Source of the DNA: a virus
Lineage: Duplodnaviria > Caudoviricetes
Length of the DNA stretch: 64,000 nt
Direction: 5' to 3' (one strand)
Virus record (IMG/VR): IMGVR_UViG_3300025575_000011
Location: 1 to 64,000 of that record
Part shown: piece by piece, positions 2,305 to 57,457 of the stretch
Layout: every line of letters starts with the position of its first letter
Position numbering within the stretch: position 1 is the stretch's first letter
Made by a program: the position numbers and the translations under genes
The notes under the pieces: model-generated
Told to the model about the DNA's origin: nothing
Database searches by the model: none
The model's input: the letters and a program-made list of their open reading frames with translations, nothing else

Positions 2305-3321
2305 ATGATGTCCGAAAAGATAACCGACAATTTAGAGGAAGATAATTTATTCCAAGTTGATACTGCATTTAAAGAAGAATTTTTAGGAACACTAAAAAAG
2401 ACAACAAGAAAATTCTATCGTTATGTTTTAAAAAGAGCAGATTTTTATGAAAAACAACTCGGTATTAGTATGTTCGATTTTAATATGGAGCAAAGAGACG
2501 ACATGTTAACAGTTCAATTCAAAAACAAGTCTCAATGGGCTTTCCAAACTGTTAGATCACCATTAAAAAACTATGTGGACTACTGCATGTTTAAAAGTTT
2601 TACAGACAGGAATGAGAATATTTTCGAATTAATTCTTCCTAGTTCCTATGATAAGTATGTAAACCCACAGGCCGTTGAAAACTCATATATTCCTAAAGCT
2701 AGGGTTAGAGAATTAGAAGATTTATTGGTTAATGAACAAGACAAACTCTTCCTTGAATTATTAAGTTGGGGCACAAGAGGTCGTACAGAAAAAGGTAATA
2801 CGCTAGAAGAATTTATAAATTTAAAAGTAGAAGATGTAGATTTCCAAAAGAATACAATTAAACTATCTAAAAACAATATAACTGAAAAAAGAGTTTTATA
2901 TGTAGATGATTTTACTACTGATCTAGTAAAAAGAACTATTGAAAAAGGGTTTTATTTGTTCAATAATGGATTAAAAGGGAAAAAGAATAGTAAAGGAATT
3001 TACGAAAAAACAGATAAAGGATTCCAGATCAATGAAACTGAATATGTTTTCAGAATTCCGGGCAAAAACAAGTATGGACAAATTGATCATCAGTTAATTG
3101 CTAATAGAATACAAAGAATCCAAAAATGGACAAATACAAAGTATTTAAATATTTCTAGCCTCTACTTTTCAAGTATGATAGATAAGGCCAAGGAAATAAA
3201 AGCGAAAAAAGGTAAACTCACTAGACAGGATTATGTTGATATTAATGAGGAATTTTCATACGGAGCAGACGGAGAGATTTATCTGAATAAAATTAAGGAA
3301 ATGATGAGTTTCTATATCTAA
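2305..3321 (+). CDS. tyrosine-recombinase-fold protein, probably catalytically dead repressor (SPbeta YopR/MrpR/SroF-like)
   Basis: Box I-like GTRG...LEEFINLKVEDVD present; the expected HxxR box II position reads LNISSLYFS; 338 aa. Confidence 0.65.
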   Translation: MMSEKITDNLEEDNLFQVDTAFKEEFLGTLKKTTRKFYRYVLKRADFYEKQLGISMFDFNMEQRDDMLTVQFKNKSQWAFQTVRSPLKNYVDYCMFKSFTDRNENIFELILPSSYDKYVNPQAVENSYIPKARVRELEDLLVNEQDKLFLELLSWGTRGRTEKGNTLEEFINLKVEDVDFQKNTIKLSKNNITEKRVLYVDDFTTDLVKRTIEKGFYLFNNGLKGKKNSKGIYEKTDKGFQINETEYVFRIPGKNKYGQIDHQLIANRIQRIQKWTNTKYLNISSLYFSSMIDKAKEIKAKKGKLTRQDYVDINEEFSYGADGEIYLNKIKEMMSFYI

Positions 3322-4165: not shown

Positions 4166-4420
4166 ATGAATCCATATTACACAATAGATGATATAACTAC
4201 AACGAGAGTCCTTGGACTTATAGATAAATGCAAAGAATTAAATTTAGGTAATGTATCTTTTGTTTATTTTGCATTACCTAAACACGATGAGATTAGATTT
4301 CGTTTAACTGAGGATAATCATGGATGGGAATTAGTTATCATTACTAGAAGAACCGAAGAAGTAGATGTATATAGAATTACTGAAGATAAATTAGTATATC
4401 AGTACTCAGAAAAAGATTAA
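4166..4420 (+). CDS. hypothetical protein
   Basis: 84-aa ORF, RBS ggagga. Confidence 0.6.
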   Translation: MNPYYTIDDITTTRVLGLIDKCKELNLGNVSFVYFALPKHDEIRFRLTEDNHGWELVIITRRTEEVDVYRITEDKLVYQYSEKD

Positions 4421-4452
4421 TTTATCTTTCCCCATCTTTTTATTATTTATAC

Positions 4453-4481
4453 TTGACTTATAACTCAGGATAAACTATACT
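4453..4481 (+). promoter_or_regulatory. sigmaA-type promoter
   Basis: TTGACT-17 nt-TATACT. Confidence 0.7.
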
Positions 4482-16010: not shown

Positions 16011-17799
16011 AATACATAGGCCGATAAAACATGCATTTCTTGGTATCGGAAAGGAGTTTGGTCATGAGAGTTGAATATTACTTTAGTGCAACTTCTGATT
16101 CAAATAGTTGGAAAGACTTTTTGACAAAAGAACAGAATGGAAGATTAGACTGTTTTTATAAAAAGATAACTGGATATGGATGGAAAGATAAATTTGGTTT
16201 TCACCCAAATGGTGAATCTATACATATCAGTGAAAATGGAGATGTGTATAAAGGAGTTTGGTTTGAAACAGATACTAGAAAGATTGCTATATTTGATGTG
16301 TTTAGCAAAAATTAATTTAGGGGGAGGTGACACTGTGGAATTTACTTCAATTAAAAATAAGAAAGCTAATATTAATTGTTGCCATCAATACTTACATAGG
16401 CCATTAAATATGAGTAAGTCTATCATTGAAGTAGGTAAGCCGTTGAGTATATTATACGAAATTGGTTCGTCTTTTGGTCATGAGATGGTTATTGGTATTG
16501 AATATCTTAATAAAACAGCTATGAGAGTAGAGACACAAAATAAGATATGGATTATATCCTAGCAAAGAGGAGTTTTAAGCTATGTTAAAATTTTTAATGA
16601 AGAAACCTAAAGAAGAAGACCAATATAAAATTAATTATTGGCCTTATCCTGTAGGAAAACTCATACCAAGAAACAAAAATTACGTAGCAAGAGATGTTGT
16701 ATATATAGAATCACACAATTTAATAGATGGAACAATTACAAGGATAGATGTATCACATGTAAAACTAAAGGAGGATATTAAATGAGTGGATATTTTCAAT
16801 ATATAGGATTTTATTATGAACCACATGTCCAGTATTTTATGAGAAGAATTGAAGCAAGTAATCAGATAGAAGCAGAGAACAAATTTATAAAATATATTGA
16901 AGAAGAAAATGGTAGTTGTGTCTATGAAATATTTGTTAGTTTGATATCTGATTTAGATATTATCAATTGATACTAAGAAACTCATGTTTTAAGGGGAAAG
17001 GAGTGATACTAAATGATTCCGTGGGAAGAACCAATACCAGAATGTACTGAGTGTGAATATCATAAACCGCCATATGATATTTGTAGATGTTGTCATTTTG
17101 CATTTAGCGAGAATAAAACAAACTATTTTGAACAGAAAGAGGAATAAATGAAGTATTTACTAGATATAAACATTCCATATTGGCTTGGTAAGCAACTCAA
17201 TATTTTATTGTGGATTAATAGCAATGGGAAAATCAAAATTCTAAATCTTACATTTTGGTTAAATTATAGAGTGAAAGAGATACAAGGATATGAAAAAGAT
17301 TGGTTTCTAGGTAAGAGAAAAAGTTTTGTTTTACGGAAATGGGACATTAAATAATACCCATCGAAAATACAGTTTTATCCTATAAGGAGGTGTCTAAAAC
17401 AATTGAAAAATTGTGTCGTAAGAACTTATGGTAGGGGCTATTCTAGTCCTATGGAGAATTTATCAAATAAGTTAAGTGATGGATGGATTGTAAAGAGTAG
17501 TACACCAATTTTAAACAGAGATGGCAAAACAGAGTATATTGAGTATATTTTAGAAAAAGAATAACATTCCCAAGAAACATAATTTTCATGGGATAAGAAA
17601 GGAGAAATATATGAGTAATTTTGAGAAGGTAATAAATATTGGTATGAAGGCAATGGGCGTGATTTATGCGGTAGATTCTATTGTAATATTACTAGGATAT
17701 CTTACACCATCTGCATTTGGTTCAGGCGTAACCCATTTATGTATAGCTTCGTTCTGCTTAATGAGTACATATTCGAAACCAAGTAAAACCAAATAATAT

Positions 17800-17828
17800 T
17801 TGACTTATATTCACTAATGTAATATAAT
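17800..17828 (+). promoter_or_regulatory. sigmaA-type promoter
   Basis: TTGACT-17 nt-TATAAT. Confidence 0.65.
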
Positions 17829-19291
17829 ATTAATTAAGGAGGTAGGCAATACATATGAGATTGATTTGCACATGTAAGGTTTGTGGTCATGATGATGATT
17901 GGTCTGAGAGTAAAACAGAAGATTATTACTTTTGTCAAAGTTGCCACACAGAATCACACAAAGGATCTATGAAGCTAGAATTTGAGTTTTATGGGGTTAA
18001 GGTTTTTCCTGTGGACTTTGGAGATGAGGACGAGGAAGAGGAAACACAAATAAATAGGTATGTAAGTGAAACAGAGAATTGTGAAAACTGTATGTATAAT
18101 AAAGATTCTTCCCTTTGTTATGAACGTTGGGATAAAATGAGCAATCTTCCTATTAAGAAGTTTGGAGATGGTTTAATTAACTGTTGGGAGCAAGAAGACT
18201 AAACACTTAAAAGATTACTTTTATGGTACGGGAGGTGAAATATTATGATTGAATGTGGGAAGTGCCAAAAAGAAACATTGCCTTTTTACATTACTCAAGA
18301 TGGAAAGTCATTATGTGTTGAATGTGCTACAAAGCATTGTGAACTCGTACATACAAAAATGAATCGAGATATCCAAGAAATGCAAAAGAGCATGAATAAT
18401 AGTAGTAACGATTTATTTAAGTTAAAGAGACAAATGTGTAAACATGAGAATTTAATTGATACTGGATATTGTCGATGGAGTGACCGTCTAAGACTAATTT
18501 TCAAGTGTGCTGAATGTGGTAAGGAAATACTAAAGGACTAATCCCATAAGTAGTCAATTTCATCGGATAGGAGGAATTTAATTTTATGGTTCAGGTCAGA
18601 GAAGTTCTTAAAGACATCTCAGAACTATTACTTATAATTTATGACAATTATAGTCTTGACGATGAGACAGATAGTTATATTGAATCTCAATTATATGATA
18701 TTGTAAGTAACTTATAATCCAAATCAAAAATTAGTTTCATGGGAAAATATAAAAAGAAAGAGGTTCTGGTGATATGGAACAGTTTAATTTTGAAAAACAT
18801 TGGGGTAAGTTTAGGGCAGATGGATTAGCAGTAAATTGTAAAACAGAGGATTTAGCAAACGAATTTTTGAGTTTTTGCGAACAAAGGGGTTTAGAATGGA
18901 GTGGTGGAGATTCATTGTTATCTTCAAATAACAAATGGCAAGAGCACGAGTCAGAAACTTGTTATTGGGGAAGATGGGGAGTATCATATTCCAGTATTAA
19001 TTATTGCAATGAGCAAAAAGTAGGCATTATAGAATTTATAGGTTCAAACAAAGAAGTAAAATCCAATCATCCAACAACCACAACTGAAGAAACAATCAAA
19101 GTAATCTATCATCGAAGGGAAACAATCGTTCTTCTCAAATCAGAAGGCAAACATTATAGAGGTGTTTCAAAATGCAGTTCACTAGATACATATAATAAAG
19201 AAGAGGGTTTTTTATTAGCATTAGAAAGAGCAAGAGATAATCAGAAGGAAGGGAGATATTAAATGATTTGTTGGGAAAAGAGTAAAAATAA

Positions 19292-20167
19292 ATGTCAAAT
19301 CTAAACACTGAGGAAAAGAAGAAGAGAGCAGACAAACGAAGGCAAGATAAATACAATGAGGAACATAAACTAATTAATGGAATGATTTTTAAGTGGTGTA
19401 AGGTTGGACAACATTGGGTAGTAATGGATGAGGAACATTTTTATATGAATCAAAAAAATGGGGTAGACGGGTTTCATCCAGATTGTAAATATCACACAAT
19501 TGAAAAATCAAGAAAATGGGCTAAAGATAACCCAGAAAGAGAAAAAGAAATAAGACACAAAATAAATACTAACCCATCTGATAAAACAAGAGAAACCAAA
19601 CGTATAGACGCTCAAACAAGAAGAGATAATGGCAAGTATTATCAATGGTTAAAAGATAATCCTGATAAACAATCTGCGTATACTTTAAATCATAGACAGC
19701 ATGATATTACAGAAAAGGAATGGCGATTATGTAAAGATTACTTTGATAATAAATGTGCTTATTGTGGACTACCAGCAGAAAAACATTTTGCAAGCAGGAA
19801 TGGTAAAGAAATTATAATGGATTTACATAGAGAACATGTTGAAGATGATGGTTATAATGACCTAAGAAACTGTGTGCCATCTTGTAAGGGCTGCAATAGT
19901 GCTAAACATGATTTTATTATGGTAGATTGGTTTTCTAGACAAACATTCTATGATATAGTAAGATATAATATTATTATATTGTGGACAACCGAAGATTATG
20001 AGCAATACATTGAAGAAAAACCTCCTTATAAAATGACTAAAAAGAAAAATGATGGTTTAAAGACTTTCCATTGGGAACTTTGGACGGTCGACGAGAAGAG
20101 GAATACAGTAGAATTAATAGATATAAAAGACAAAAAGAGACAGTTAGATATTAAATTAATACTATAA
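19292..20167 (+). CDS. HNH endonuclease-domain protein
   Basis: CAYCG...LHREHV...GYNDLRNCVPSCKGCNSAK. Confidence 0.8.
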   Translation: MSNLNTEEKKKRADKRRQDKYNEEHKLINGMIFKWCKVGQHWVVMDEEHFYMNQKNGVDGFHPDCKYHTIEKSRKWAKDNPEREKEIRHKINTNPSDKTRETKRIDAQTRRDNGKYYQWLKDNPDKQSAYTLNHRQHDITEKEWRLCKDYFDNKCAYCGLPAEKHFASRNGKEIIMDLHREHVEDDGYNDLRNCVPSCKGCNSAKHDFIMVDWFSRQTFYDIVRYNIIILWTTEDYEQYIEEKPPYKMTKKKNDGLKTFHWELWTVDEKRNTVELIDIKDKKRQLDIKLIL

Positions 20168-20206
20168 AGCGATTATTTTATTCTACAAATAGAAAGGAAA
20201 TGAATT

Positions 20207-20573
20207 ATGAAATTAAATTTCACAGTAGATATAGACAGAAGTGATGACATATGATTTACAAGAGGAACTATTAAATAAAGCGTCAGAAAAATTTATAGAG
20301 GGTATTTTAGGGAACAAGTGGGATGATGATACCTTGTATGAAAAACTAGAAAAAAGAGTCATATCAAAACTAGAGATAATTATGGACGCAGACTTTAAAA
20401 ATTCAGTATCTACAAAAGTCACTGATAATCTAGTTAAGAAATTTGAAAGGACTAAACAATACAAAATATTACAATCCAATGGAGAAGTGGTTGCAGATGG
20501 TATAATCAAAAGTGGATTAAAGGATTTAATTGCTGAGATTGTCAGAAGTGAAATGAAAAAAGTATTTAAATAG
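20207..20573 (+). pseudogene. hypothetical gene with apparent 1-nt frameshift near 20237
   Basis: SD plus ATG 20207 gives MKLNFTVDID and stops at about 20252; removing one A at 20237 joins it to ORF 20241..20573, whose GTG lacks an SD. Confidence 0.45.
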
Positions 20574-44422: not shown

Positions 44423-44468
44423 ATAGGTAGTGGTAAGTATGATTATTTTGAGAGGAGGGTTAGAATTT

Positions 44469-45926
44469 ATGTTGGTTACTAAAGAAGTTGAAGTGGGATT
44501 ATCCTCAATAAATACTAAATACTATGAAAAATTAGGATATAAGATACCAAGGAGAATAGATAAATATGGAATAAATTGTGTTAAAAGAGGAACAAAAATT
44601 AGAGTAAAAACGCAAGATTTACAAGATAGGTGTAATTCGTTAGTTGATGTTATATGTGATGGATGTGAAAAAACATTAAATATAAAATGGAGTGACTATA
44701 AAAGAAGTGTAAAAGAAAATGGAGAATGTTATTGCTTTAAGTGTGGTAATGCAGGGCATAAGAAATGGGTTAGTTTCTATGAGTGGTGTTACCTTAATTT
44801 ATCTAAAGAAGATGCTGATAGGATATTATCTCGTTGGGACTATGATTTAAATGGAATAAACCCTATTGATGTTACCTATAGTTCTAAAGGGCTAAATGGA
44901 AAAGGATATTGGTTTAAATGTTTGACATATCATGAGCATGGATCAGAGTTAAGAGACATTAGTAATTTTACAAGTGGTGAAGTGGGGAGTATTTGTTGCA
45001 CCAAATGTAACAAAATTGCAGTCACCAATCCTGATTTGGTAGATTTTTTTGTTGATAAGGAAGATGTATTAAAATATTCAAGTGGCTCCGAAAAATCCAC
45101 TTTGATTAGATGCCCTGAATGTGAATTTCAAAATAAAAGAATTATTAAAAATTTTATACGATATGGAATTAATTGTCCTAAATGTTCCGACGGAGTACCA
45201 TATCCTGAAAAATTTATGTTTAGCGTTCTATGTCAACTAGATATAATATTTAAAACTCAGTTATCTAAATCTACTTTTGAATGGTGTGGTAAATACCAGT
45301 ATGATAACTTTATTTCAGAAATAAATTGCATAATCGAGACTCATGGGTTACAGCATTATGAAGAGAATGCTAATTGGAAAATGTCATTAGATAAAACGCA
45401 AGAGAATGATAAATTAAAGGAACAAAATGCTAAAGATAATAACATAGGGAATTATATAGTTTTAGATTGCAGGTATTCTCAACTAGAATGGATTAAAAAT
45501 AGTATAATGCACAGCGAGATTCCACGGTTATTAAACTTCAAAGAAGAAGATATTAATTGGCTACAATGCTCTGAATATGCTTGCAAAAACATGGTCAAGG
45601 AGGCATGTAATTTGTGGAATTCTGGAATCAATAAAACAATAATAATAGCAGATAAATTAAGGATTAGTAGAGCAACTGTATTAAGATACTTAAAACAAGG
45701 TGCAGAACTAAAGTGGTGCAAATATATTAATCACAGTAAAGTAATATGCCTAACTACAAATGAAATTTTCAATACACAAACAGAAGCGTCTAGAAAATAT
45801 AATATGTATAGTAGCAGTGATATTGCTCAATGTTGCAGACACAATAGACCATTTTCAGGTAAACATCCAGACACGGGAGAGAAACTTGTGTGGATGTATT
45901 ATGGAGAGTATCTATCTATAACTTAA
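44469..45926 (+). CDS. free-standing homing-endonuclease-like protein (Zn-ribbon repeats, Vsr/DUF559-like nuclease, NUMOD1-like tail)
   Basis: Repeated CxxC ribbons, CPKCSDGVPYPEK, YDNFI...IIETHGLQHY, VICLTTNEIF...EAS...IAQCC. Confidence 0.75.
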   Translation: MLVTKEVEVGLSSINTKYYEKLGYKIPRRIDKYGINCVKRGTKIRVKTQDLQDRCNSLVDVICDGCEKTLNIKWSDYKRSVKENGECYCFKCGNAGHKKWVSFYEWCYLNLSKEDADRILSRWDYDLNGINPIDVTYSSKGLNGKGYWFKCLTYHEHGSELRDISNFTSGEVGSICCTKCNKIAVTNPDLVDFFVDKEDVLKYSSGSEKSTLIRCPECEFQNKRIIKNFIRYGINCPKCSDGVPYPEKFMFSVLCQLDIIFKTQLSKSTFEWCGKYQYDNFISEINCIIETHGLQHYEENANWKMSLDKTQENDKLKEQNAKDNNIGNYIVLDCRYSQLEWIKNSIMHSEIPRLLNFKEEDINWLQCSEYACKNMVKEACNLWNSGINKTIIIADKLRISRATVLRYLKQGAELKWCKYINHSKVICLTTNEIFNTQTEASRKYNMYSSSDIAQCCRHNRPFSGKHPDTGEKLVWMYYGEYLSIT

Positions 45927-45988: not shown

Positions 45989-46786
45989 TTAAGCGTAGAA
46001 TTTATCATAAACGTCTCTCCTATTTTGGCATCTCTTTGGTCTCTTTTGATCTTGAGAGATGCTTATGTTTTTTGATGGATACAAGATTACTAAACCACTT
46101 TTCTGTTGTCTAATTGACGATACTACTAATCCAAATTCACTCTTCTTGATTTTATTATGTAATATTTTTTCATTAACCATCTTCAGTGCAAAGTCTAATT
46201 GACTTGGGGTTGCCTGTTCTTGCTTCATAATATTTTGATACTGTTTACCTCTGTTACTATCAATGTCAATCCCATTGCTCCCCAATATAAAAATTGTGGA
46301 TAAAGTTTCATCATCGTCTCTAATATTTTCAGTTTTACATACAGAGTTTAATATTAAAGGGATGGTTTCTTCTTTGTGCGTCACCGTTGGCATGTCTCTT
46401 TTTAAAGAAATACTAAACTTCTTATCCCCTTCTATCTCCCCTGCCCTCTTAATAGGAAGGAGAGAGTATAAATTGCTTGTAGTATACCTCTGTAAAGACA
46501 CTAAACACGATGCCCTTACCAATTCCCCTATAAATCTCTGAATGCTTCTTACAGAGCATCGTAGTGCCTTTGATAAGTACAACTGACTAGGAAAAATTGA
46601 TTTCTTCCTACCATACATCATGCTTTTAACTTTCATATAAAGCACTATGGCCCCATTGGATAAGTCAAACTCCTCTGCAATTTCCCATATCTCATTATTG
46701 AAAATAGTAAAGTTACCTTCATATTGATCTAAACTTGCCACAATATTTTCCTCATCTCTAGCATTTGGGTATATTGAACTAGACAT
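45989..46786 (-). CDS. HTH (HTH_36-like) plasmid/phage replication-initiator-like protein
   Basis: GAIVLYM...SIFPSQLYLSKALRCSVRSIQRFIGELV...YSL; adjacent to Par genes and repeat array; start uncertain (ATG 46786 or TTG 46885). Confidence 0.6.
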   Translation of the reverse strand: MSSSIYPNARDEENIVASLDQYEGNFTIFNNEIWEIAEEFDLSNGAIVLYMKVKSMMYGRKKSIFPSQLYLSKALRCSVRSIQRFIGELVRASCLVSLQRYTTSNLYSLLPIKRAGEIEGDKKFSISLKRDMPTVTHKEETIPLILNSVCKTENIRDDDETLSTIFILGSNGIDIDSNRGKQYQNIMKQEQATPSQLDFALKMVNEKILHNKIKKSEFGLVVSSIRQQKSGLVILYPSKNISISQDQKRPKRCQNRRDVYDKFYA

Positions 46787-47046
46787 TAAGAAAATACATG
46801 TTATACTAAAAGAACAGAGAAACCCCCTTGTATTAGTAAACAAATATTTTTCATGTCCAGCCCATGATTTGTGATCGGCAGCCAAACTGATTCACAATCA
46901 TGGGTTTTGCTATTTCTAAAATGAATTTCTACACAATGTTTCATATCTATCCACCTGTTGATATGTTTCTACAATGTTATTCCTTTGTGGACAAAATACT
47001 TACCATTAGTGTACTATATCCCCCAATATTTGCAATCAAAATAATA

Positions 47047-47480
47047 TAGACTCATATCCTCATATGCGTACAAGAGTATGTGTACATGAATGGATATGGG
47101 TCTATATGTTTATGTTCATATGCGTTTATAATTATATGAGTATAAACATTTATGTACTTGAAGCCATAAGAGTATGAGCGCATATGTACTTGTACATTTA
47201 AAATCATATACACCTAAACATATATACTCATATGAATCTAAACTCATAAGTACATGTGCGTATAAACATCTAAACCCATAGACGGATAAACATATATGTA
47301 CTTATGCAATTATGTTTATATACTCATATGGGTTTATGATTACATACATCTATGGGTTTATGAATATATAATCATATGTGTTTGAATGTATAAGCACATA
47401 GACATATATGCGTATAAATACATATGAGCATAAAAATATAGATGTTCAAGTACATAAATACATAAACATCTATGGGTATA
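47047..47480. repeat. dense bidirectional 9-mer array (ATG[ACG]GT[AT]TA / TA[AT]AC[TC]CAT): candidate centromere (parS) or iterons
   Basis: Copies near 47047, 47096, 47120, 47136, 47223, 47239, 47271, 47319, 47328, 47352, 47408, 47424, 47472, plus many degenerate CATAT/ATATG units; no ORF. Confidence 0.75.
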
Positions 47481-47611: not shown

Positions 47612-48112
47612 CTAGTCATCATCTACAATATCATACTCTTTACGAAATTCACGAAAAACGAATTCTGATACTTGATCTCCACTGGTTATTGTCTCTGAGA
47701 GTTTATGTTTGTACTTTTCATAGAGATACTGACCAATTCTTAGAAATTCTTCAGCAATAATGCCTTGGTGATAGTTCTGAATTTCTGCATATTTTAATTC
47801 TCTTGAGATATTATCAATGTAATTTACAATCTTTTTATCAATAATATAACTTGTTCTTGTTTTACCTTTTTCTTTAGTTAGAATTGTTCTCTTAATATCA
47901 GGTGTGATTTCAGGTTCTACAGTTAATTCTACAGGAGGAATTATGATTTCTTTAACAGGTGGTTTAATAACCTTGATCTTTTTAGGGATTATTTTCTTTG
48001 GTATTTCATCTACTTTAGTCTTTACAGCCTCATGCATATTACTGTTTTTTGATTGTTTAACCTTACTAGGCATTGAAAGAACCATAGCAGGATTAAATAA
48101 TTGATCAGACAA
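47612..48112 (-). CDS. type Ib ParB-like centromere-binding adaptor (disordered N-terminus, RHH-like C-terminus)
   Basis: Coupled to parA; Pro/Lys-rich N-terminus, then RTSYIIDKKIVNYIDNIS. Confidence 0.55.
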   Translation of the reverse strand: MSDQLFNPAMVLSMPSKVKQSKNSNMHEAVKTKVDEIPKKIIPKKIKVIKPPVKEIIIPPVELTVEPEITPDIKRTILTKEKGKTRTSYIIDKKIVNYIDNISRELKYAEIQNYHQGIIAEEFLRIGQYLYEKYKHKLSETITSGDQVSEFVFREFRKEYDIVDDD

Positions 48113-48980
48113 GGCTTAATACCTCCTCTGCTAAAAGGTCAAAATCTTCTGAGCCACTAGAATGAGGTGCTAATTCTCCAATGAGCAAGTGTTTTTCAGG
48201 ACAATCCATTAAAGAACTACATACACGAATTGGCGTAGTAGATAACTTGGTAGGGTAAACCTCCTTTATTACGTCTAATGCTTTATCGACACGATTTTTC
48301 ATTCTTCTATCTAACATGTTGGGTATGATCATCCCAATATCCATGTAGTTATAAACACCGTCTGTATCATACTCTTTCAAAAGGTCTATGTTCTGGTTTA
48401 CTTCATCAATAGTTTGCTTTATTTGTGCTACTCCATTGACAGAAAAGAAGTCACATATCAAAGGAACAAATGTTGTCTGTGCAGCAAGCAAAGCATTTAA
48501 GTGTAATATCGAATGGGAGGGACTTGAATCGAAAAAAATGTAGTCATATTGGGCAAAGAATGGTTTATTGTCTTCCATGACGTTTTTTAATATAAGACCC
48601 GAACCTGCTTCTAATCCACGCTCAAGAACGAATTTAGCAAGCATTCTGTTGCCTTGAATCAAATCTAAGTTGTCTCTTACTCTAATTATTGCCTTATCTG
48701 GAGTTGCTGATTGATATAAGATGTCCGACATAGTTGGAATTTTTCCTATATAATCTTGTACTCCAAAGAATAAACCAGTATTGTTTTGACTATCAAGATC
48801 CATTACTAAAACCTTTTTGCCCTTTTTAGCAAGTGAGGCCGAGAGGTTTAAGGTAATGGTTGTCTTTCCGACACCTCCCTTATGAGCTACGATTGCGATT
48901 ATACGAGGATTAGCATTATGAAAAATAGATTGCTTCTTAGAAGTAGAAGGTTTCTTTTTTAACTTGTCCAATACTTTCAT
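48105..48980 (-). CDS. parA: ParA/Soj partition ATPase
   Basis: Deviant Walker A KGGVGKTT, DLDSQNN, FFDSSPS, PLICDFFS, IIPNM. Confidence 0.92.
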   Translation of the reverse strand: MKVLDKLKKKPSTSKKQSIFHNANPRIIAIVAHKGGVGKTTITLNLSASLAKKGKKVLVMDLDSQNNTGLFFGVQDYIGKIPTMSDILYQSATPDKAIIRVRDNLDLIQGNRMLAKFVLERGLEAGSGLILKNVMEDNKPFFAQYDYIFFDSSPSHSILHLNALLAAQTTFVPLICDFFSVNGVAQIKQTIDEVNQNIDLLKEYDTDGVYNYMDIGMIIPNMLDRRMKNRVDKALDVIKEVYPTKLSTTPIRVCSSLMDCPEKHLLIGELAPHSSGSEDFDLLAEEVLSLV

Positions 48981-48996
48981 ACAAAATCACTTCCTT

Positions 48997-49191
48997 TTAC
49001 TCATATTTCTCAAAGAACTCTTCTAATGCTTTGTTTGCAAGTCCTGATTCAGATGTTCTATATTTATCTTTAAAGTTTGCTAATTTATGAAGGTTGTCCA
49101 GAGTAATATACAGTCCCTTTAGCTTTTTCAAGACAGATGATGGTTTAGATGGCATATCCAAATATTTTTTACTCATGATATCTGCATCCAT
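48997..49191 (-). CDS. small ribbon-helix-helix regulator
   Basis: KGLYIT...LHKL...SESGLANKALEEFF. Confidence 0.55.
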   Translation of the reverse strand: MDADIMSKKYLDMPSKPSSVLKKLKGLYITLDNLHKLANFKDKYRTSESGLANKALEEFFEKYE

Positions 49192-49203
49192 AATGTCCTC
49201 CTA

Positions 49204-49227
49204 AATGTTAATGTTAATGTTAACATT
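49204..49227. promoter_or_regulatory. AATGTT x3 plus inverted AACATT, candidate operator
   Basis: aatgttaatgttaatgttaacatt upstream of the RHH-parA operon. Confidence 0.45.
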
Positions 49228-49307
49228 CTACATTAGATTCTAAAATCCTTTATTCGACAGAAAAGAAATTTTGTAGTAGGAATATTGCAATGTCCACTCC
49301 CATAAGA

Positions 49308-49329
49308 TTGTAATACAATTGTAATACAA
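49308..49329. promoter_or_regulatory. tandem 11-bp repeat TTGTAATACAA x2, candidate parC/operator
   Basis: Perfect tandem of a near-palindrome directly upstream of the parM RBS. Confidence 0.55.
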
Positions 49330-49341
49330 ATTAAGGAGGGA

Positions 49342-50244
49342 TTGTCCATGTTGTTCTGGGATTGCGGAAACAGCTATGGAAAAGCACGAGACTCTAAAGG
49401 AAGAGAATTAAAAATCCTATCAGTAATAGGCAAAGCACAAGAAACTTTTACAGAAAAACAACTATGGCAAATTGATGGAAATTATATCGGTGAAGATGCA
49501 ATTTTACATGGTTATGCTCAAGATTATTCCCTTGATGAAATCAAAACAGAACAATCTACATTTAAAACATTAACAAAATATGCTTTATGTAATTACAAAG
49601 GTGAGAATAAAATCGTTTTCTTGTTTCCATTTGAATCTTATTTCAGTGAAAAGAAACAAATTGTAGAAATGTTTTCAAGAAATATGGATATTGCTTATAA
49701 AATAGGAAATACTACTTACAATTATAATTTTAAACCTGAACTTATACGCTCACTTCCGCAAGGATACTGTGCAGGAATGGATTATTTTCTTGATGATGAA
49801 GGTAAAATAAAAGAAGAAATCCCAAATACAGTTTTAATAATTGATGTAGGAATGGGAACTGTAAACTATATTTATTTACTCAGAGGAGAAATTGTTAGGG
49901 AAATGTCTCATACAACTAATAATGGAATGCATCAGATTTATAAAAGAGGACTTCAAGGCAAAAAAATATATGAAGTTGATTTATTCAATGGTTTTAATTC
50001 AGTAGCTCATTTATATCCAGATCAAGCAACATTAATTAAGAGTGATATTTCAACTTATTACGAGTTAAAAAAATTAGATCAAATAGTTGTTGTAGGTGGA
50101 GGAGGGGAAGCAATATATCATTTCTTGCCTTGGACAAATAAGGTTTTGCACAAAGGACAATTTTCTAATGTTAGAGGTGCAAGTAAGGTGGTGCAAAATT
50201 TATCATGGGGGAAATCAGAACATTTAGAGATGATGATGTCTTAA
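49342..50244 (+). CDS. parM: ParM/StbA actin-like partition ATPase
   Basis: Phosphate-1 DCGNSYGK, phosphate-2 IDVGMGT, adenosine VVGGGG, PQG linker. Confidence 0.85.
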   Translation: MSMLFWDCGNSYGKARDSKGRELKILSVIGKAQETFTEKQLWQIDGNYIGEDAILHGYAQDYSLDEIKTEQSTFKTLTKYALCNYKGENKIVFLFPFESYFSEKKQIVEMFSRNMDIAYKIGNTTYNYNFKPELIRSLPQGYCAGMDYFLDDEGKIKEEIPNTVLIIDVGMGTVNYIYLLRGEIVREMSHTTNNGMHQIYKRGLQGKKIYEVDLFNGFNSVAHLYPDQATLIKSDISTYYELKKLDQIVVVGGGGEAIYHFLPWTNKVLHKGQFSNVRGASKVVQNLSWGKSEHLEMMMS

Positions 50245-50435
50245 AACCTTTGTTAGATACAATTCCTAGAAGAAAGATGGGTAAGATAATTAGGAGAGCG
50301 TTGTATGATTATTTTTTCAAGGGAAAAGATATAGTAATGGCAGAGGATGAGGATTGTTATATAGAAGTGGTTGAGGTTGAAGAGGTTAAAATTAAACCAG
50401 TAAAAGAAATTAAATTTGATATGTTTGAAGATTAG
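50205..50435 (+). CDS. ParR-like adaptor
   Basis: Overlaps the parM end; short helix pair (KMGKIIRRALYDYF) with acidic tail. Confidence 0.6.
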   Translation: MGEIRTFRDDDVLKPLLDTIPRRKMGKIIRRALYDYFFKGKDIVMAEDEDCYIEVVEVEEVKIKPVKEIKFDMFED

Positions 50436-50461
50436 TCCTGAGAAATCAGGGCTTTTCTTTT
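50433..50461 (+). terminator. intrinsic terminator
   Basis: agtcctgagaaatcagggct plus T-rich tail. Confidence 0.65.
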
Positions 50462-50467
50462 ACCTTT

Positions 50468-50569
50468 TTACATATATCCCATATTGTGAGCCATCACAAT
50501 TGCTGTAAACCCATATGCAATTGCTAGAACTATAATTATTGATAGTTTATTTTTAGTATTTGCTGTCAT
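50468..50569 (-). CDS. 33-aa single-TM peptide
   Basis: RBS aaggaggg; MTANTKNKLSIIIVLAIAYGFTAIVMAHNMGYM. Confidence 0.55.
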   Translation of the reverse strand: MTANTKNKLSIIIVLAIAYGFTAIVMAHNMGYM

Positions 50570-54509: not shown

Positions 54510-56906
54510 ATGCAACAAAAAGCATTAATCAACTTTAGAAAAAGAGAGATCCTTCCAACAAAACTTAAAAGAGAAACCTTTGGATACAAAGCATACTCTA
54601 TTACGCCCTCTCGTTTTATCGAGAGTGGCGAGGCACTTAAACAAATCTTAGATACTGCAAGTGCAATTCATGAAGGAATGTTTAAATATGATTACCTTAA
54701 TAAATCATTTGTAATAAACCAATCAAGTCCTATTTATTATGAAGTTTTATATGAAGGCAAAAATATTTCATTCAATTATATCATACCCGATAAATATACA
54801 GAGGTATTAGTAAATAAAATTGATCGTGTATTTCGTGTGGCTGCGGTAAAGGAACTAGAAGAAGATTATTTCCATAATTTTGTAAATAAATATTATTGTA
54901 CTTTTGCACAGAAAAAACATTTTATGTTTTCATTAAATACTAATGCAGATGATAGTTTATTAGAAAATTTATTGTCAGTTATAAATTCAGTCCAACCTGA
55001 CGATAAAGTTTTACTTCAAGTTGCATTAAATCCCCTTAATGAAAAATGGAAAGAAGATTGGGCTAAAGCAAACATTAAACGTAAAAATGGGGAAGAACTG
55101 GCAGTTCATCCTAGTAAAGCAATTTCTGTTATTGAAAGCATAATGGGTACTGTTGAAAATGCTCTAGATTTAGTAGACATAATTGTTGGAGTAGATAAGA
55201 AAGAAAAAGAAGCATATTCAAAAAAGGAAAAGCAAATTGATAGTTGGGGAGGGAATATGTATCGCAATGCCAATCTGACAAAACAAAAGATAAATGGAAA
55301 TGGATTTGAATGTCAGATTAGACTTTATTGCACTAGTGAAGAAAGGACAAGATACTATCAAAAGATATTCTCAGGAGTTTTTAAGGTGTTGGATGCAGAG
55401 CAAGAGTTGGAATTTACTACAATAGGAAAACATAAGAGCAAGGATAGAGAATTTGAAGGGCATTTAACTAGTAAGAATGTATTTTCTACGAAAGAGATCA
55501 TGCCATTCTTGAGATTACCCAATCGCAAAATGCAGGGAGACTTCAAGGAGAGTATGAAAGCAATTCAAATTACTGAGGTTCCTATACCAGAGGAATTATT
55601 AAATGGAGAAATTCCTATAGGAGAAGCATCATATAAGGAAAATAAATTTATAGCTTATTGGAACACGAGAAACAAAGATATTGCTGCAATGCACAAAATA
55701 TTAGCTGGTATGCAAAGAGCAGGTAAAACAAACTACCTAATACACTTTGCAATAAAATCTATGAAAGCAGGTCAATCAGTTTTTGTAATTGACAGCATTA
55801 AAAATTGTGAACTAGCCGATGCAATAAGAGATCACCTGCCACCAGAATTCCATCATAAAATTATTGTATTGGATTATAGTAATCTAGACTATCTACTTTC
55901 ATTAGCATGGAGTGAACTCAGAAAACATCAAGGAGAAACAGACAAGAAGCACAGAATGATGTTAGCAAGTCAAATTGCAGGAAATCTTGAATCATTTATT
56001 GAGAGCGTTGGAGCAGGATCAGTTCAAGAGAAATTTAGTGCACGAATGAAACGATTCTTAGCATGTGCAGCAAAGCTAGTTTTATCACAAGAAGGAACGA
56101 ATATTAAAGATGTTTTAGATGTGCTTCAAGAGAGGGATATTAGAGATGAATTTATTGAAAGATCAGGTTTGCCTGAATCAAATATTATTGTTCAAGAATT
56201 AAGAAGATTAGACGACCCTAAAACTGAAGGGACAAGATATGATTTAATAGGAGGAATTATAGACAGAGCATCAATAATGACAAATGATTACCTTATGGAA
56301 TTGTTGCTTAGTGTAAAACCCAATGATGAGATTGACTTTAGATATTGGGCTGATAATGGATACTGTGTGTTAATTAAAGTTTCCGAACTTAAAGTAAGCA
56401 GAACTGCTCTAAGACCTTTGGTTTCATTTATCTATTCAAAATTATGGTTGAGTATGTTTTCTAGAGGAGAACAAAAAAGTCCTAGAATCACAAATGTAAT
56501 ACTTGATGAGATCCACAACTTCCCAGAGGTATGTAATATGATCAAGGGAAATTGTCGTGAATCGGCTAAATACGGATTAAGTTATGTTTTTACTAGCCAT
56601 ATGCTCACAGACCTTAAAGGATTGTTACCAATTATTAAAGGGTCTGGTGCTAGTTTTATGTTATTTAAAACCACTAAAGAGAATTTGAGGTTATTGGAAG
56701 AAGAATTAATGCAAGGTGGAATTACGATAGAAGAAGCTCTGGAACTTAAAAAATTCCACACTATTAACATCGTCAATTATGATAGGGAATATGCAGTATT
56801 TACAACGAAAGCACCTGATTTAATAGACAAGTGTTATAAACTCATTGATAGAAGTCATATAGATTTAGAATGTAGTATGAAATATGGGAGTCCTTTTGAA
56901 GATTAG
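54510..56906 (+). CDS. FtsK/HerA-superfamily P-loop ATPase (VirB4/coupling-protein-like)
   Basis: Walker A AGMQRAGKT, VFVID, Walker B VILDEIHNF, KYGL...TSH; long N-terminal domain; 798 aa. Confidence 0.75.
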   Translation: MQQKALINFRKREILPTKLKRETFGYKAYSITPSRFIESGEALKQILDTASAIHEGMFKYDYLNKSFVINQSSPIYYEVLYEGKNISFNYIIPDKYTEVLVNKIDRVFRVAAVKELEEDYFHNFVNKYYCTFAQKKHFMFSLNTNADDSLLENLLSVINSVQPDDKVLLQVALNPLNEKWKEDWAKANIKRKNGEELAVHPSKAISVIESIMGTVENALDLVDIIVGVDKKEKEAYSKKEKQIDSWGGNMYRNANLTKQKINGNGFECQIRLYCTSEERTRYYQKIFSGVFKVLDAEQELEFTTIGKHKSKDREFEGHLTSKNVFSTKEIMPFLRLPNRKMQGDFKESMKAIQITEVPIPEELLNGEIPIGEASYKENKFIAYWNTRNKDIAAMHKILAGMQRAGKTNYLIHFAIKSMKAGQSVFVIDSIKNCELADAIRDHLPPEFHHKIIVLDYSNLDYLLSLAWSELRKHQGETDKKHRMMLASQIAGNLESFIESVGAGSVQEKFSARMKRFLACAAKLVLSQEGTNIKDVLDVLQERDIRDEFIERSGLPESNIIVQELRRLDDPKTEGTRYDLIGGIIDRASIMTNDYLMELLLSVKPNDEIDFRYWADNGYCVLIKVSELKVSRTALRPLVSFIYSKLWLSMFSRGEQKSPRITNVILDEIHNFPEVCNMIKGNCRESAKYGLSYVFTSHMLTDLKGLLPIIKGSGASFMLFKTTKENLRLLEEELMQGGITIEEALELKKFHTINIVNYDREYAVFTTKAPDLIDKCYKLIDRSHIDLECSMKYGSPFED

Positions 56907-56917
56907 GAGGGAGTTAA

Positions 56918-57457
56918 ATGAAAAGTATTACGGATTTTCGTATTACTACAAATTGGCATGAGGTTGATAACTTTCATGCCTCTCCCCATTCAGGTTTAGA
57001 TTTGGCCTGTGTTACTGGGACAAAAATTTATTCCCAAGATTCAGGGACAATCTCTCTTACAATTGATCAATGGTTGGGTAATACTGTACGTTTAAAGCTC
57101 GATGATGGTAGGATTATAGTATATGGACACTTGAGTAAGATAAACGTCACACAAGGGCAACGTGTGGGTGTCAATGAACTTTTAGCTGAAACAGGAGGTG
57201 CTGTGGGCAGTCCAAACAGCGGAAGAACAACTGCTGAACATTTGCATGTGAGCGAGTACAGTTTTGATGGCACTACTTTAATTGACCCAACTAATTATCT
57301 ATTCCATCATGAGTTGGTTGCCCAAAGTAATTCAAGTCCATTTTTAGTCCCTACCATGCTTATTCTATTATTTATTATCTTTTTTAAGTTCCGAAAGTTT
57401 TTTATATATGGATTTGGAATATGTGCTATTCTAGGAATTATTTTTATCGCTTCATAA
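56918..57457 (+). CDS. M23 metallopeptidase with C-terminal membrane anchor
   Basis: HSGLD (HxxxD), YGHLS, HLH motif; hydrophobic C-terminus. Confidence 0.88.
   Translation: MKSITDFRITTNWHEVDNFHASPHSGLDLACVTGTKIYSQDSGTISLTIDQWLGNTVRLKLDDGRIIVYGHLSKINVTQGQRVGVNELLAETGGAVGSPNSGRTTAEHLHVSEYSFDGTTLIDPTNYLFHHELVAQSNSSPFLVPTMLILLFIIFFKFRKFFIYGFGICAILGIIFIAS

Follow-up and report, generated by a model that had tools for sequence, protein, structure and literature searches.

The DNA examined here is a 64,000-nucleotide stretch of phage sequence, hereafter the window (bases 1-64000 of the 84,150-bp IMG/VR record IMGVR_UViG_3300025575_000011, or G000, with a CheckV completeness of 51%). It carries two partition-type systems arranged back to back: a Walker-type ParA cassette on the minus strand and an actin-like, ParM/ParR-type pair on the plus strand. 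Comparison with related phages favours, on balance, a reading in which the ParA cassette is a swappable plasmid-prophage module, whereas the actin-like pair belongs to the core of the lineage and serves to position phage DNA. The Rep-like gene, repeat array, adaptor, ParA and small regulator are best read as a self-contained plasmid-maintenance module that combines a replicon with type Ib partition, and this module is also what best marks G000 as a plasmid-prophage candidate. It appears to occupy the phage's lysogeny slot, alternating there with an integrase-class recombinase, while the actin-like pair would belong to the core of the lineage, independent of how the prophage is kept. The back-to-back layout would therefore be a by-product of a module swap beside a fixed module rather than a purpose-built dual locus.

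A sequence-only reading of the window had described two mechanistically different systems, Walker ParA and actin ParM, diverging from a 150-bp spacer, and had inferred a phage-plasmid with dual segregation. The description is borne out, since all five genes (a 64-amino-acid (aa) gene, parA and an adaptor gene on the minus strand, parM and parR on the plus strand) lie where they had been placed, and both systems are intact, showing the motifs and the fold that such systems should have. A picture of two co-equal systems is not, because the actin-like pair also persists in relatives that lack ParA and Rep and has a place in a gene string found in SPO1 too. The features of the locus, by window coordinates, are these:

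45989-46885, minus strand: Rep-like initiator, 298 aa; Pfam HTH_36 at 3.5e-6, above cut-off
47041-47480: octamer array, 440 bp in a stretch free of open reading frames (ORFs); 55 units of consensus WRNNYATA in a single unbroken register
47612-48112, minus strand: ParB-like adaptor, 166 aa, overlapping parA by 8 nucleotides (nt)
48105-48980, minus strand: ParA, Walker-type ATPase, 291 aa, with KGGVGKT (deviant Walker A)
48997-49191, minus strand: small protein of 64 aa, first gene of the ParA operon, with AGGAGG 6 nt 5' of the ATG
49192-49341: spacer between the divergent operons, 150 bp
49204-49227: three AATGTT repeats with the palindrome AATGTTAACATT at the end; candidate operator of the ParA operon, beside the 64-aa gene
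49308-49329: two tandem 11-bp near-palindromic repeats, TTGTAATACAA, directly 5' of the ribosome-binding site of the actin-like gene
49348-50244, plus strand: actin-like ATPase of the ParM/actin-like protein (ALP) class, 298 aa, from ATG 49348
50205-50435, plus strand: ParR-like adaptor, 76 aa, overlapping the 3' end of the actin-like gene
50434-50453, plus strand: terminator-like hairpin closing the actin-like operon, an eight-pair stem followed by a T run
54510-57457, plus strand: VirB4-like ATPase (798 aa) and M23 peptidase (179 aa), with homologues in other phages

The slot upstream of the actin-like pair

Close homologues of the actin-like protein number about 17 (51-85% identical), all of them on metagenomic phage contigs, and 13 loci with the gene were compared for the content of the slot upstream of it:

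G000, G002, L037, L038: this Rep/ParA cassette
L021, L029: a second type of cassette; its ParA is just 33% identical, and it also has a 157-aa partner and a Rep_O-like gene
G001, L020, L022, L023/L024, L025, L027: a large serine recombinase of 515-559 aa (Resolvase, Recombinase and Zn_ribbon_recom domains)
G003: a homing endonuclease and a DnaA_N protein

The co-occurrence that the sequence-only reading had proposed as a check is thus seen in G000, G002, L037 and L038, and with another ParA in L021 and L029, while in the remaining loci no ParA fills the slot. The complete 166,652-bp genome G001, which has terminal repeats, holds no ParA and no Rep homologue anywhere, and tblastn with the Rep-like protein against it returned nothing; the complete 230-kb genome G003 holds neither a ParA nor a Resolvase domain. 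The ParR-like gene, in turn, follows the actin-like gene in all 13 loci and lies downstream of it in all 11 lineages compared, and 11-bp repeats stand upstream, in two or four copies, everywhere but in L025. The TTGTAATACAA repeats are kept in G000, G001, G002, L020, L022, L023 and L027 despite unrelated upstream DNA, and L029 and L033 have four copies of the 11-bp repeat. L021 has a different 11-mer alongside changes in the N-terminal segment of its ParR, as expected of a cognate protein-site pair.

Conservation of the actin-like pair is strong where the slot differs. In the serine-recombinase relatives the pair is 70-85% identical, and the actin-like proteins of G000 and G001 share 83% identity as against 25-50% for the flanking backbone proteins. 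Recent transfer was considered as the cause and rejected, as fourfold-site identity is only 0.5-0.64 (0.64 for the gene in G000 and G001); with fourfold sites so well diverged, the conservation reflects constraint. The slot has switched state among close relatives, since the protein tree joins L029, which has a ParA cassette, and G003, which has neither ParA nor recombinase, as sisters with support of 100/100. Type II systems are characterized by their occurrence on a low-copy extrachromosomal replicon, and the actin-like pair does not appear to follow that pattern, since it is kept in the recombinase-bearing G001 and in G003 with neither, and homologous strings occur in SPO1.

One alternative is that the window, like pB171, has a genuine double par locus, in which both systems partition the same plasmid prophage, for redundancy or condition-specific stability, and cross-regulate through the 150-bp spacer. 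The layout fits: type Ib and type II operons diverge from a spacer that contains repeats, and a further repeat array lies past the adaptor gene. Both systems are intact and under purifying selection. Plasmids with type Ib and type II systems are also common (971 PLSDB accessions), with functional double systems reported for pB171, R27 and pINV (PMC13245405), and ParM-like proteins with small adaptors keep plasmid prophages of Bacillus phages (PMC8026635). Nevertheless, a double locus of this kind is judged unlikely. The actin-like pair is equally conserved where a serine recombinase fills the slot and ParA and Rep are lacking, it is conserved in the complete genome with neither (G003), and it forms part of a string common to the virulent phage SPO1; moreover, two unrelated ParA cassettes in one slot point to repeated acquisition beside a fixed module.

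A second alternative would make the actin-like pair the primary partition system of a lineage that consists entirely of plasmid prophages, with the serine recombinases serving as multimer resolvases and the Rep/ParA genes being secondary additions, for example from a co-integrated plasmid. The pair is the sole segregation-type system in G001 and G003, and resolvase genes often adjoin par loci on plasmids. However, the phage has an SPbeta-like repressor protein, and SPO1, a virulent phage, keeps the homologous string. While Bp8p-C, a large Bacillus phage with a ParM-like protein, is counted among phages with proven plasmid prophages (PMC8026635), enzymes of 515-559 aa with Resolvase, Recombinase and Zn-ribbon domains are of the integrase/transposase class, as in SPbeta (PMC11722253), and an all-plasmid lineage is considered improbable.

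As to whether the junction is real, the five-gene arrangement recurs at 67-85% protein identity on contigs of 43 kb, 133 kb and 26 kb from other samples, in addition to G000. Protein identity exceeds that at fourfold-degenerate sites for both ParA (0.78 vs 0.48) and the actin-like protein (0.85 vs 0.59), so that by these sequence measures both cassettes are under purifying selection. Mis-assembly and a non-functional system, either of which had been named beforehand as fatal to a dual locus, can be excluded as far as sequence allows because of the four contigs and the purifying selection. It is very improbable that either system is silent or a vestige in G000. A consensus scan revealed no promoter for the actin-like operon, and the candidate centromere of that system consists of two repeats only, but the reading frames are all open, the catalytic motifs are invariant, protein identity lies far above fourfold-site identity in both cassettes, and the operons have their ribosome-binding sites and a terminator. 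When the locus was compared with phage and plasmid collections by megablast, there were zero matches, and a tblastn search of plasmids with the actin-like protein gave none either; the pair has therefore not been recently captured from a sequenced plasmid.

Several further observations concern the relatives. The actin-like protein of G001 (which is also L003/L034) carries the NCBI label of a metagenome-assembled genome (MAG), 'Spirochaetes bacterium GWC1_27_15', and this could be either a mis-binned phage or a hint at the host. Besides the 519-aa enzyme that adjoins its actin-like gene, G001 encodes a second, small serine recombinase of 221 aa (G001:C1:16428-16817). A search of GTDB genomes for integrated copies returned one 22-kb MAG contig, again of phage backbone.

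The two operons and their proposed mechanism

ParA of the window has the deviant Walker A motif and the ParA/Soj fold, with matches to Pfam AAA_31 (4e-40) and CbiA (4e-19), to the PHROG 'ParA-like partition protein' (2e-46) and to solved ParA/Soj proteins (8e-22 to 3e-19). Its ATPase domain begins at residue 26, and there is no N-terminal helix-turn-helix domain and no further Pfam domain, which makes it a type Ib rather than a type Ia protein.

The 166-aa adaptor always co-occurs with ParA and has only four homologues among 5.8 billion proteins, each within this cassette. It consists of a conserved N-terminal peptide, a low-complexity Lys/Pro/Ile linker and a conserved C-terminal domain. No Pfam match was found, and the AlphaFold2 (AF2) model, built from four sequences, has a predicted local distance difference test (pLDDT) score of 54 and is unusable for fold assignment; a sub-threshold Atlas match to a centromere-binding ParB C-terminal domain (score 0.90) serves as a lead only. 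The first gene of the operon encodes a 64-aa protein, 83% identical in G002, with no Pfam, PHROG or PDB match, which is probably the autoregulator of the ParA operon. The sequence-only reading had called it a ribbon-helix-helix protein; the ORF is there, but for this and the other two small proteins of the locus the fold rests on a sequence pattern that no tool confirmed. The candidate operator lies beside it, and the TTAATGTTAATGTTAACATT core, which comprises two full AATGTT units and the palindrome, is kept in G002 and absent from the cassette-less G001.

Beyond the adaptor gene lies the octamer array. Its self-identity peaks at lags of 8, 16, 24 and 32 (0.48-0.52 vs 0.24-0.30 for a coding control), with T at position 7 in 52 of the 55 units and A at position 8 in 48, and it shows strong purine-pyrimidine alternation; its length and regularity are unusual. 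G002 has a comparable octamer-rich tract of CATATG-type units in the equivalent place, and in the second ParA cassette (ParA266; L021 and L029) no periodic array was found between the Rep and adaptor genes. The array is a candidate centromere of the ParA system, or else a candidate iteron-type origin serving Rep. Rep had been placed next to the partition genes; a Rep-like gene is indeed near, but the 440-bp array separates it from the adaptor gene. The Rep-like protein, 69% identical in G002, has weak PHROG matches to replication initiators and to O-like and DnaD-like proteins.

A 498-aa gene resembling HNH/treble-clef homing endonucleases (44430-45926) adjoins the Rep gene on its other side. 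Paralogues occur at 72413-73912 and 80181-81188 of G000, their positions vary in relatives, and in G003 one lies directly upstream of the actin-like gene.

The actin-like gene most likely starts at ATG 49348 rather than TTG 49342, since both the relatives and the ribosome-binding site point there. Its product matches Pfam ALP_N (6e-7) and MreB-like_C (3e-6), both above cut-off, and the PHROG 'partition protein' (5e-29). Identity to solved ParM/ALP proteins is just 13-20%, and the AF2 model (pLDDT 84.5) finds only ParM-type proteins as its top Foldseek matches, namely pSK41 ParM (2e-16), C. botulinum ParM, R1 ParM, Alp7A, AlfA and Alp12, over a range of 2e-16 to 1e-12. The phosphate-1 (D-x-G-N-S-x-x-K), phosphate-2 (D-x-G-x-G-T) and adenosine (GGG) motifs are invariant among 16 homologues. 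By model and motifs, it is an actin-fold ATPase of the ParM/ALP class whose nucleotide-binding motifs are intact.

The overlapping ParR-like gene encodes 40 conserved N-terminal residues, a variable acidic linker and a conserved C-terminal F-[DN]-M-F-[ED]-D tail. Its Atlas leads (score 0.83, again leads only) are all to ribbon-helix-helix families, including the R1 ParR family, and a profile search of PDB gave nothing significant, the best E-values being 0.66 (SigF) and 1.2 (a CopG-family ribbon-helix-helix protein). The TTGTAATACAA repeats are the sole exact copies within the window and are a candidate ParR site that would act as both mini-centromere and operator.

Downstream of the pair and convergent with parR, a 33-aa hydrophobic ORF lies on the minus strand (50468-50569) with an AGGAGG of its own, and it may encode a type I toxin-like or membrane peptide. 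A near-identical peptide occurs in the equivalent place in L021, and a different hydrophobic ORF of 28-31 aa in L022, L023, L036 and L038.

A mechanism can be proposed for each operon. On the minus strand, the C-terminal domain of the 166-aa adaptor would coat the octamer array, its N-terminal peptide would stimulate ParA-ATP on the nucleoid, and the 64-aa protein would shut off the operon at the AATGTT repeats. On the plus strand, the ParR-like protein would bind the 11-bp repeats and capture the filament end through its acidic-aromatic conserved tail, and the actin-like filaments could then move the extrachromosomal phage genome, whether in replication, lytic growth or a carrier state, much as AlpA/AlpC do for CGP3. 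Since the pair has a fixed place ahead of small membrane proteins, a VirB4-like ATPase and an M23 peptidase, the genome may be delivered to a site at the membrane. Of the roles named in the earlier idea of dual segregation, the last, positioning of replicating phage DNA, is the one that the comparison favours for the actin-like system. The pair may act on the phage genome in whatever extrachromosomal form it takes, the plasmid prophage of G000 among them, and may add to plasmid stability there too.

Several points weigh against a swappable ParA module beside a lineage-core positioning device. G000 is 51% complete, so an integrase may yet lie in the remainder; the serine recombinases were called integrases from their domain architecture, and no attachment site or integrated copy of the recombinase-bearing relatives was found. 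The octamer array may serve Rep rather than the adaptor. Two 11-bp repeats make a very small centromere next to classical parC, which in R1 has ten repeats, and no sigma-70-like promoter turned up ahead of the actin-like gene in a simple consensus scan. Finally, ParM-like proteins with small adaptors maintain the plasmid prophages of Bacillus phages IEBH and B83 (PMC8026635), and the 151-kb Bacillus phage Bp8p-C, with its ParM-like protein, is listed with proven plasmid prophages (PMC8026635, Table 1); as relayed there from Yuan et al. 2015, the Bp8p-C actin-like protein is tied to unstable lysogeny. Given these three phages, membership of a mostly lytic family does not exclude an episome-keeping role.

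The phage backbone and a gene string shared with SPO1

Downstream of the actin-like pair, related phages encode small membrane proteins, then a VirB4-like ATPase (~790 aa) and an M23 peptidase. Gp17-gp21 of Bacillus phage vB_BboS-125 have an equivalent order, with matches to the actin-like protein (tblastn 7e-10), lytM (3e-21) and the gp21 ATPase (9e-23). The vB_BboS-125 homologue, in turn, matches 207 phage records, mostly of Bacillus phages of ~125-165 kb, including SPO1 and others of SPO1 type. In SPO1, a strictly virulent phage, gp27.9 is actin-like (hhalign 93.5%, 2e-7) and is followed by gp27.8, three tiny genes and the gp27.4 ATPase (9e-47). The order held in common is thus an actin-like gene, an overlapping small gene, tiny genes and a VirB4-like ATPase. 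SPO1 differs from the window in having no ParA or Rep cassette, and its small second gene encodes 141 aa as against the 76 aa of ParR, with no evident similarity between the two; gp27.3 was tried as a counterpart of the M23 peptidase and rejected for want of similarity.

It is tempting, though tentative, to see in this string an ancient supermodule, common to temperate SPbeta-like and virulent SPO1-like phages of Bacillota, in which an actin-like filament and its DNA adaptor are joined to tiny membrane proteins, a VirB4-like ATPase and a cell-wall peptidase. Such a supermodule could bring the phage genome to an ATPase at the membrane, where it would be replicated or transferred, with the neighbouring slot as a hotspot for lifestyle swaps.

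A link to the Spbetavirus Goe14 (L041) was rejected as more than a lead, since hhalign (48%) and tblastn (1e-3) gave no more than a weak match for the actin-like protein, and similarity of the large protein is slight (6e-4). In Goe14, an annotated SR6 antitoxin RNA (4253-4467) overlaps a small ORF on the opposite strand in what resembles a type I toxin-antitoxin pair. The two lie ~2.5 kb ahead of the Goe14 actin-like gene and are a possible parallel to the 33-aa ORF beside parR.

With regard to the phage itself, the window encodes a DnaE-type polymerase, a DnaB helicase, a ligase and an anaerobic ribonucleotide reductase, and siphophages of Clostridioides and Bacillus, 130-170 kb in size, have the closest polymerases. 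The best reading is that the window covers about half the genome of a temperate phage built like SPbeta and some 165 kb long. A 338-aa protein (2305-3321) matches the N-terminal core-binding domain of MrpR at 8e-10, with a sub-threshold integrase domain; the MrpR fold is that of the SPbeta master repressor (PMC10516654). ATRAAA-N6-TTTYAT dyads are more numerous than expected (22 vs ~9) and dispersed, and none was found within 40.5-61.7 kb, so there is no clue that the repressor controls the locus. Of the marks of a plasmid prophage, G000 has Rep-like and ParA genes and, in the 84 kb of this 51%-complete record, no serine recombinase; its sole tyrosine-recombinase-like gene has the MrpR-like repressor fold and falls under the integrase cut-off. 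Separately, in the G002-type relatives L036, L037 and L038 the large subunit of ribonucleotide reductase (~17,500-20,500) has an intein that contains a LAGLIDADG endonuclease.

Significance and comparison with known systems

Two partition types on one replicon are already well documented, and the observation itself is not new, given that type Ib and type II double loci are known from pB171, R27, pINV and 971 PLSDB plasmids. Less expected are the unequal standing of the two halves, the swap of lifestyle modules in one slot and the link of the actin-like pair to a VirB4-like string shared with SPO1. A phage ParM/ParR pair is routinely taken as proof of a plasmid prophage, which calls for caution in annotation: the pair here persists whether its neighbour is an integrase-class recombinase, a ParA/Rep cassette or neither of these, and it is therefore unusable as a lifestyle marker. 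The close relatives also amount to a natural experiment, since they differ mainly in one slot, filled by a serine recombinase or by either Rep/ParA cassette, and this variation provides a clean system for studying how phages switch between integration and plasmid life. In addition, the linkage of actin-like and VirB4-like genes offers a testable hypothesis for genes of model phages to which no function has yet been assigned.

The nearest plasmid parallel is pB171 of E. coli, whose two par operons are adjacent and divergently transcribed. According to those parts of Ebersbach and Gerdes 2001 and Ringgaard et al. 2007 that are relayed in PMC13245405 and PMC4270457, par1 is a type II parMR system, par2 is a type Ib parAB system, and parC1 and parC2 flank par2. 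Like pB171, the window has Walker type Ib and actin-type operons on one replicon, with repeats between and beyond them. It differs in that the replicon is a large phage, an extra small regulator gene stands ahead of parA and the distal array has 55 octamers. Furthermore, its actin-like half is not specific to the plasmid state and is linked to the string with the phage membrane ATPase. More broadly, a 2026 survey counted 971 PLSDB plasmids with both a type I system with ribbon-helix-helix ParB and a type II system (PMC13245405), and the Bacillus plasmid pBMB165 has a prophage with a ParM-like system and a ParA-Ib system elsewhere on the plasmid (PMC8026635).

The closest phage parallel for the actin-like half is AlpC/AlpA of the integrated C. 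glutamicum prophage CGP3. These bind DNA just ahead of their own operon and appear early after induction, and efficient replication of the phage DNA depends on them (PMC4446434). As with AlpC/AlpA/alpS (PMC4446434, PMC5539076), where the adaptor is a co-transcribed DNA-binding protein, an actin-like phage ATPase shares an operon with a small adaptor gene, with candidate sites upstream of the operon, and as in CGP3 the pair is present irrespective of plasmid maintenance, here in recombinase-bearing relatives. Its gene order, upstream repeats and presence regardless of plasmid maintenance would thus place it with AlpAC-type systems. Unlike CGP3, however, the window has a ParA/Rep cassette alongside, both host phylum and phage type differ, no sequence kinship is apparent, and the role of the pair in the window is a proposed one.

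For the ParA half, the closest parallels are type Ib systems with ribbon-helix-helix adaptors and short-repeat centromeres, namely delta/omega of pSM19035 (PMC3074150) and ParF/ParG of TP228. In common with the window, their ParA has no DNA-binding domain at the N-terminus, a small adaptor is encoded downstream and very short repeats take the place of 16-bp parS palindromes, and the solved delta protein matches the 291-aa ParA at 9e-8. In contrast to pSM19035 and TP228, the adaptor of the window is longer (166 aa) and has a long low-complexity linker, the regulator is encoded by a separate upstream gene, and the array extends to 55 units.

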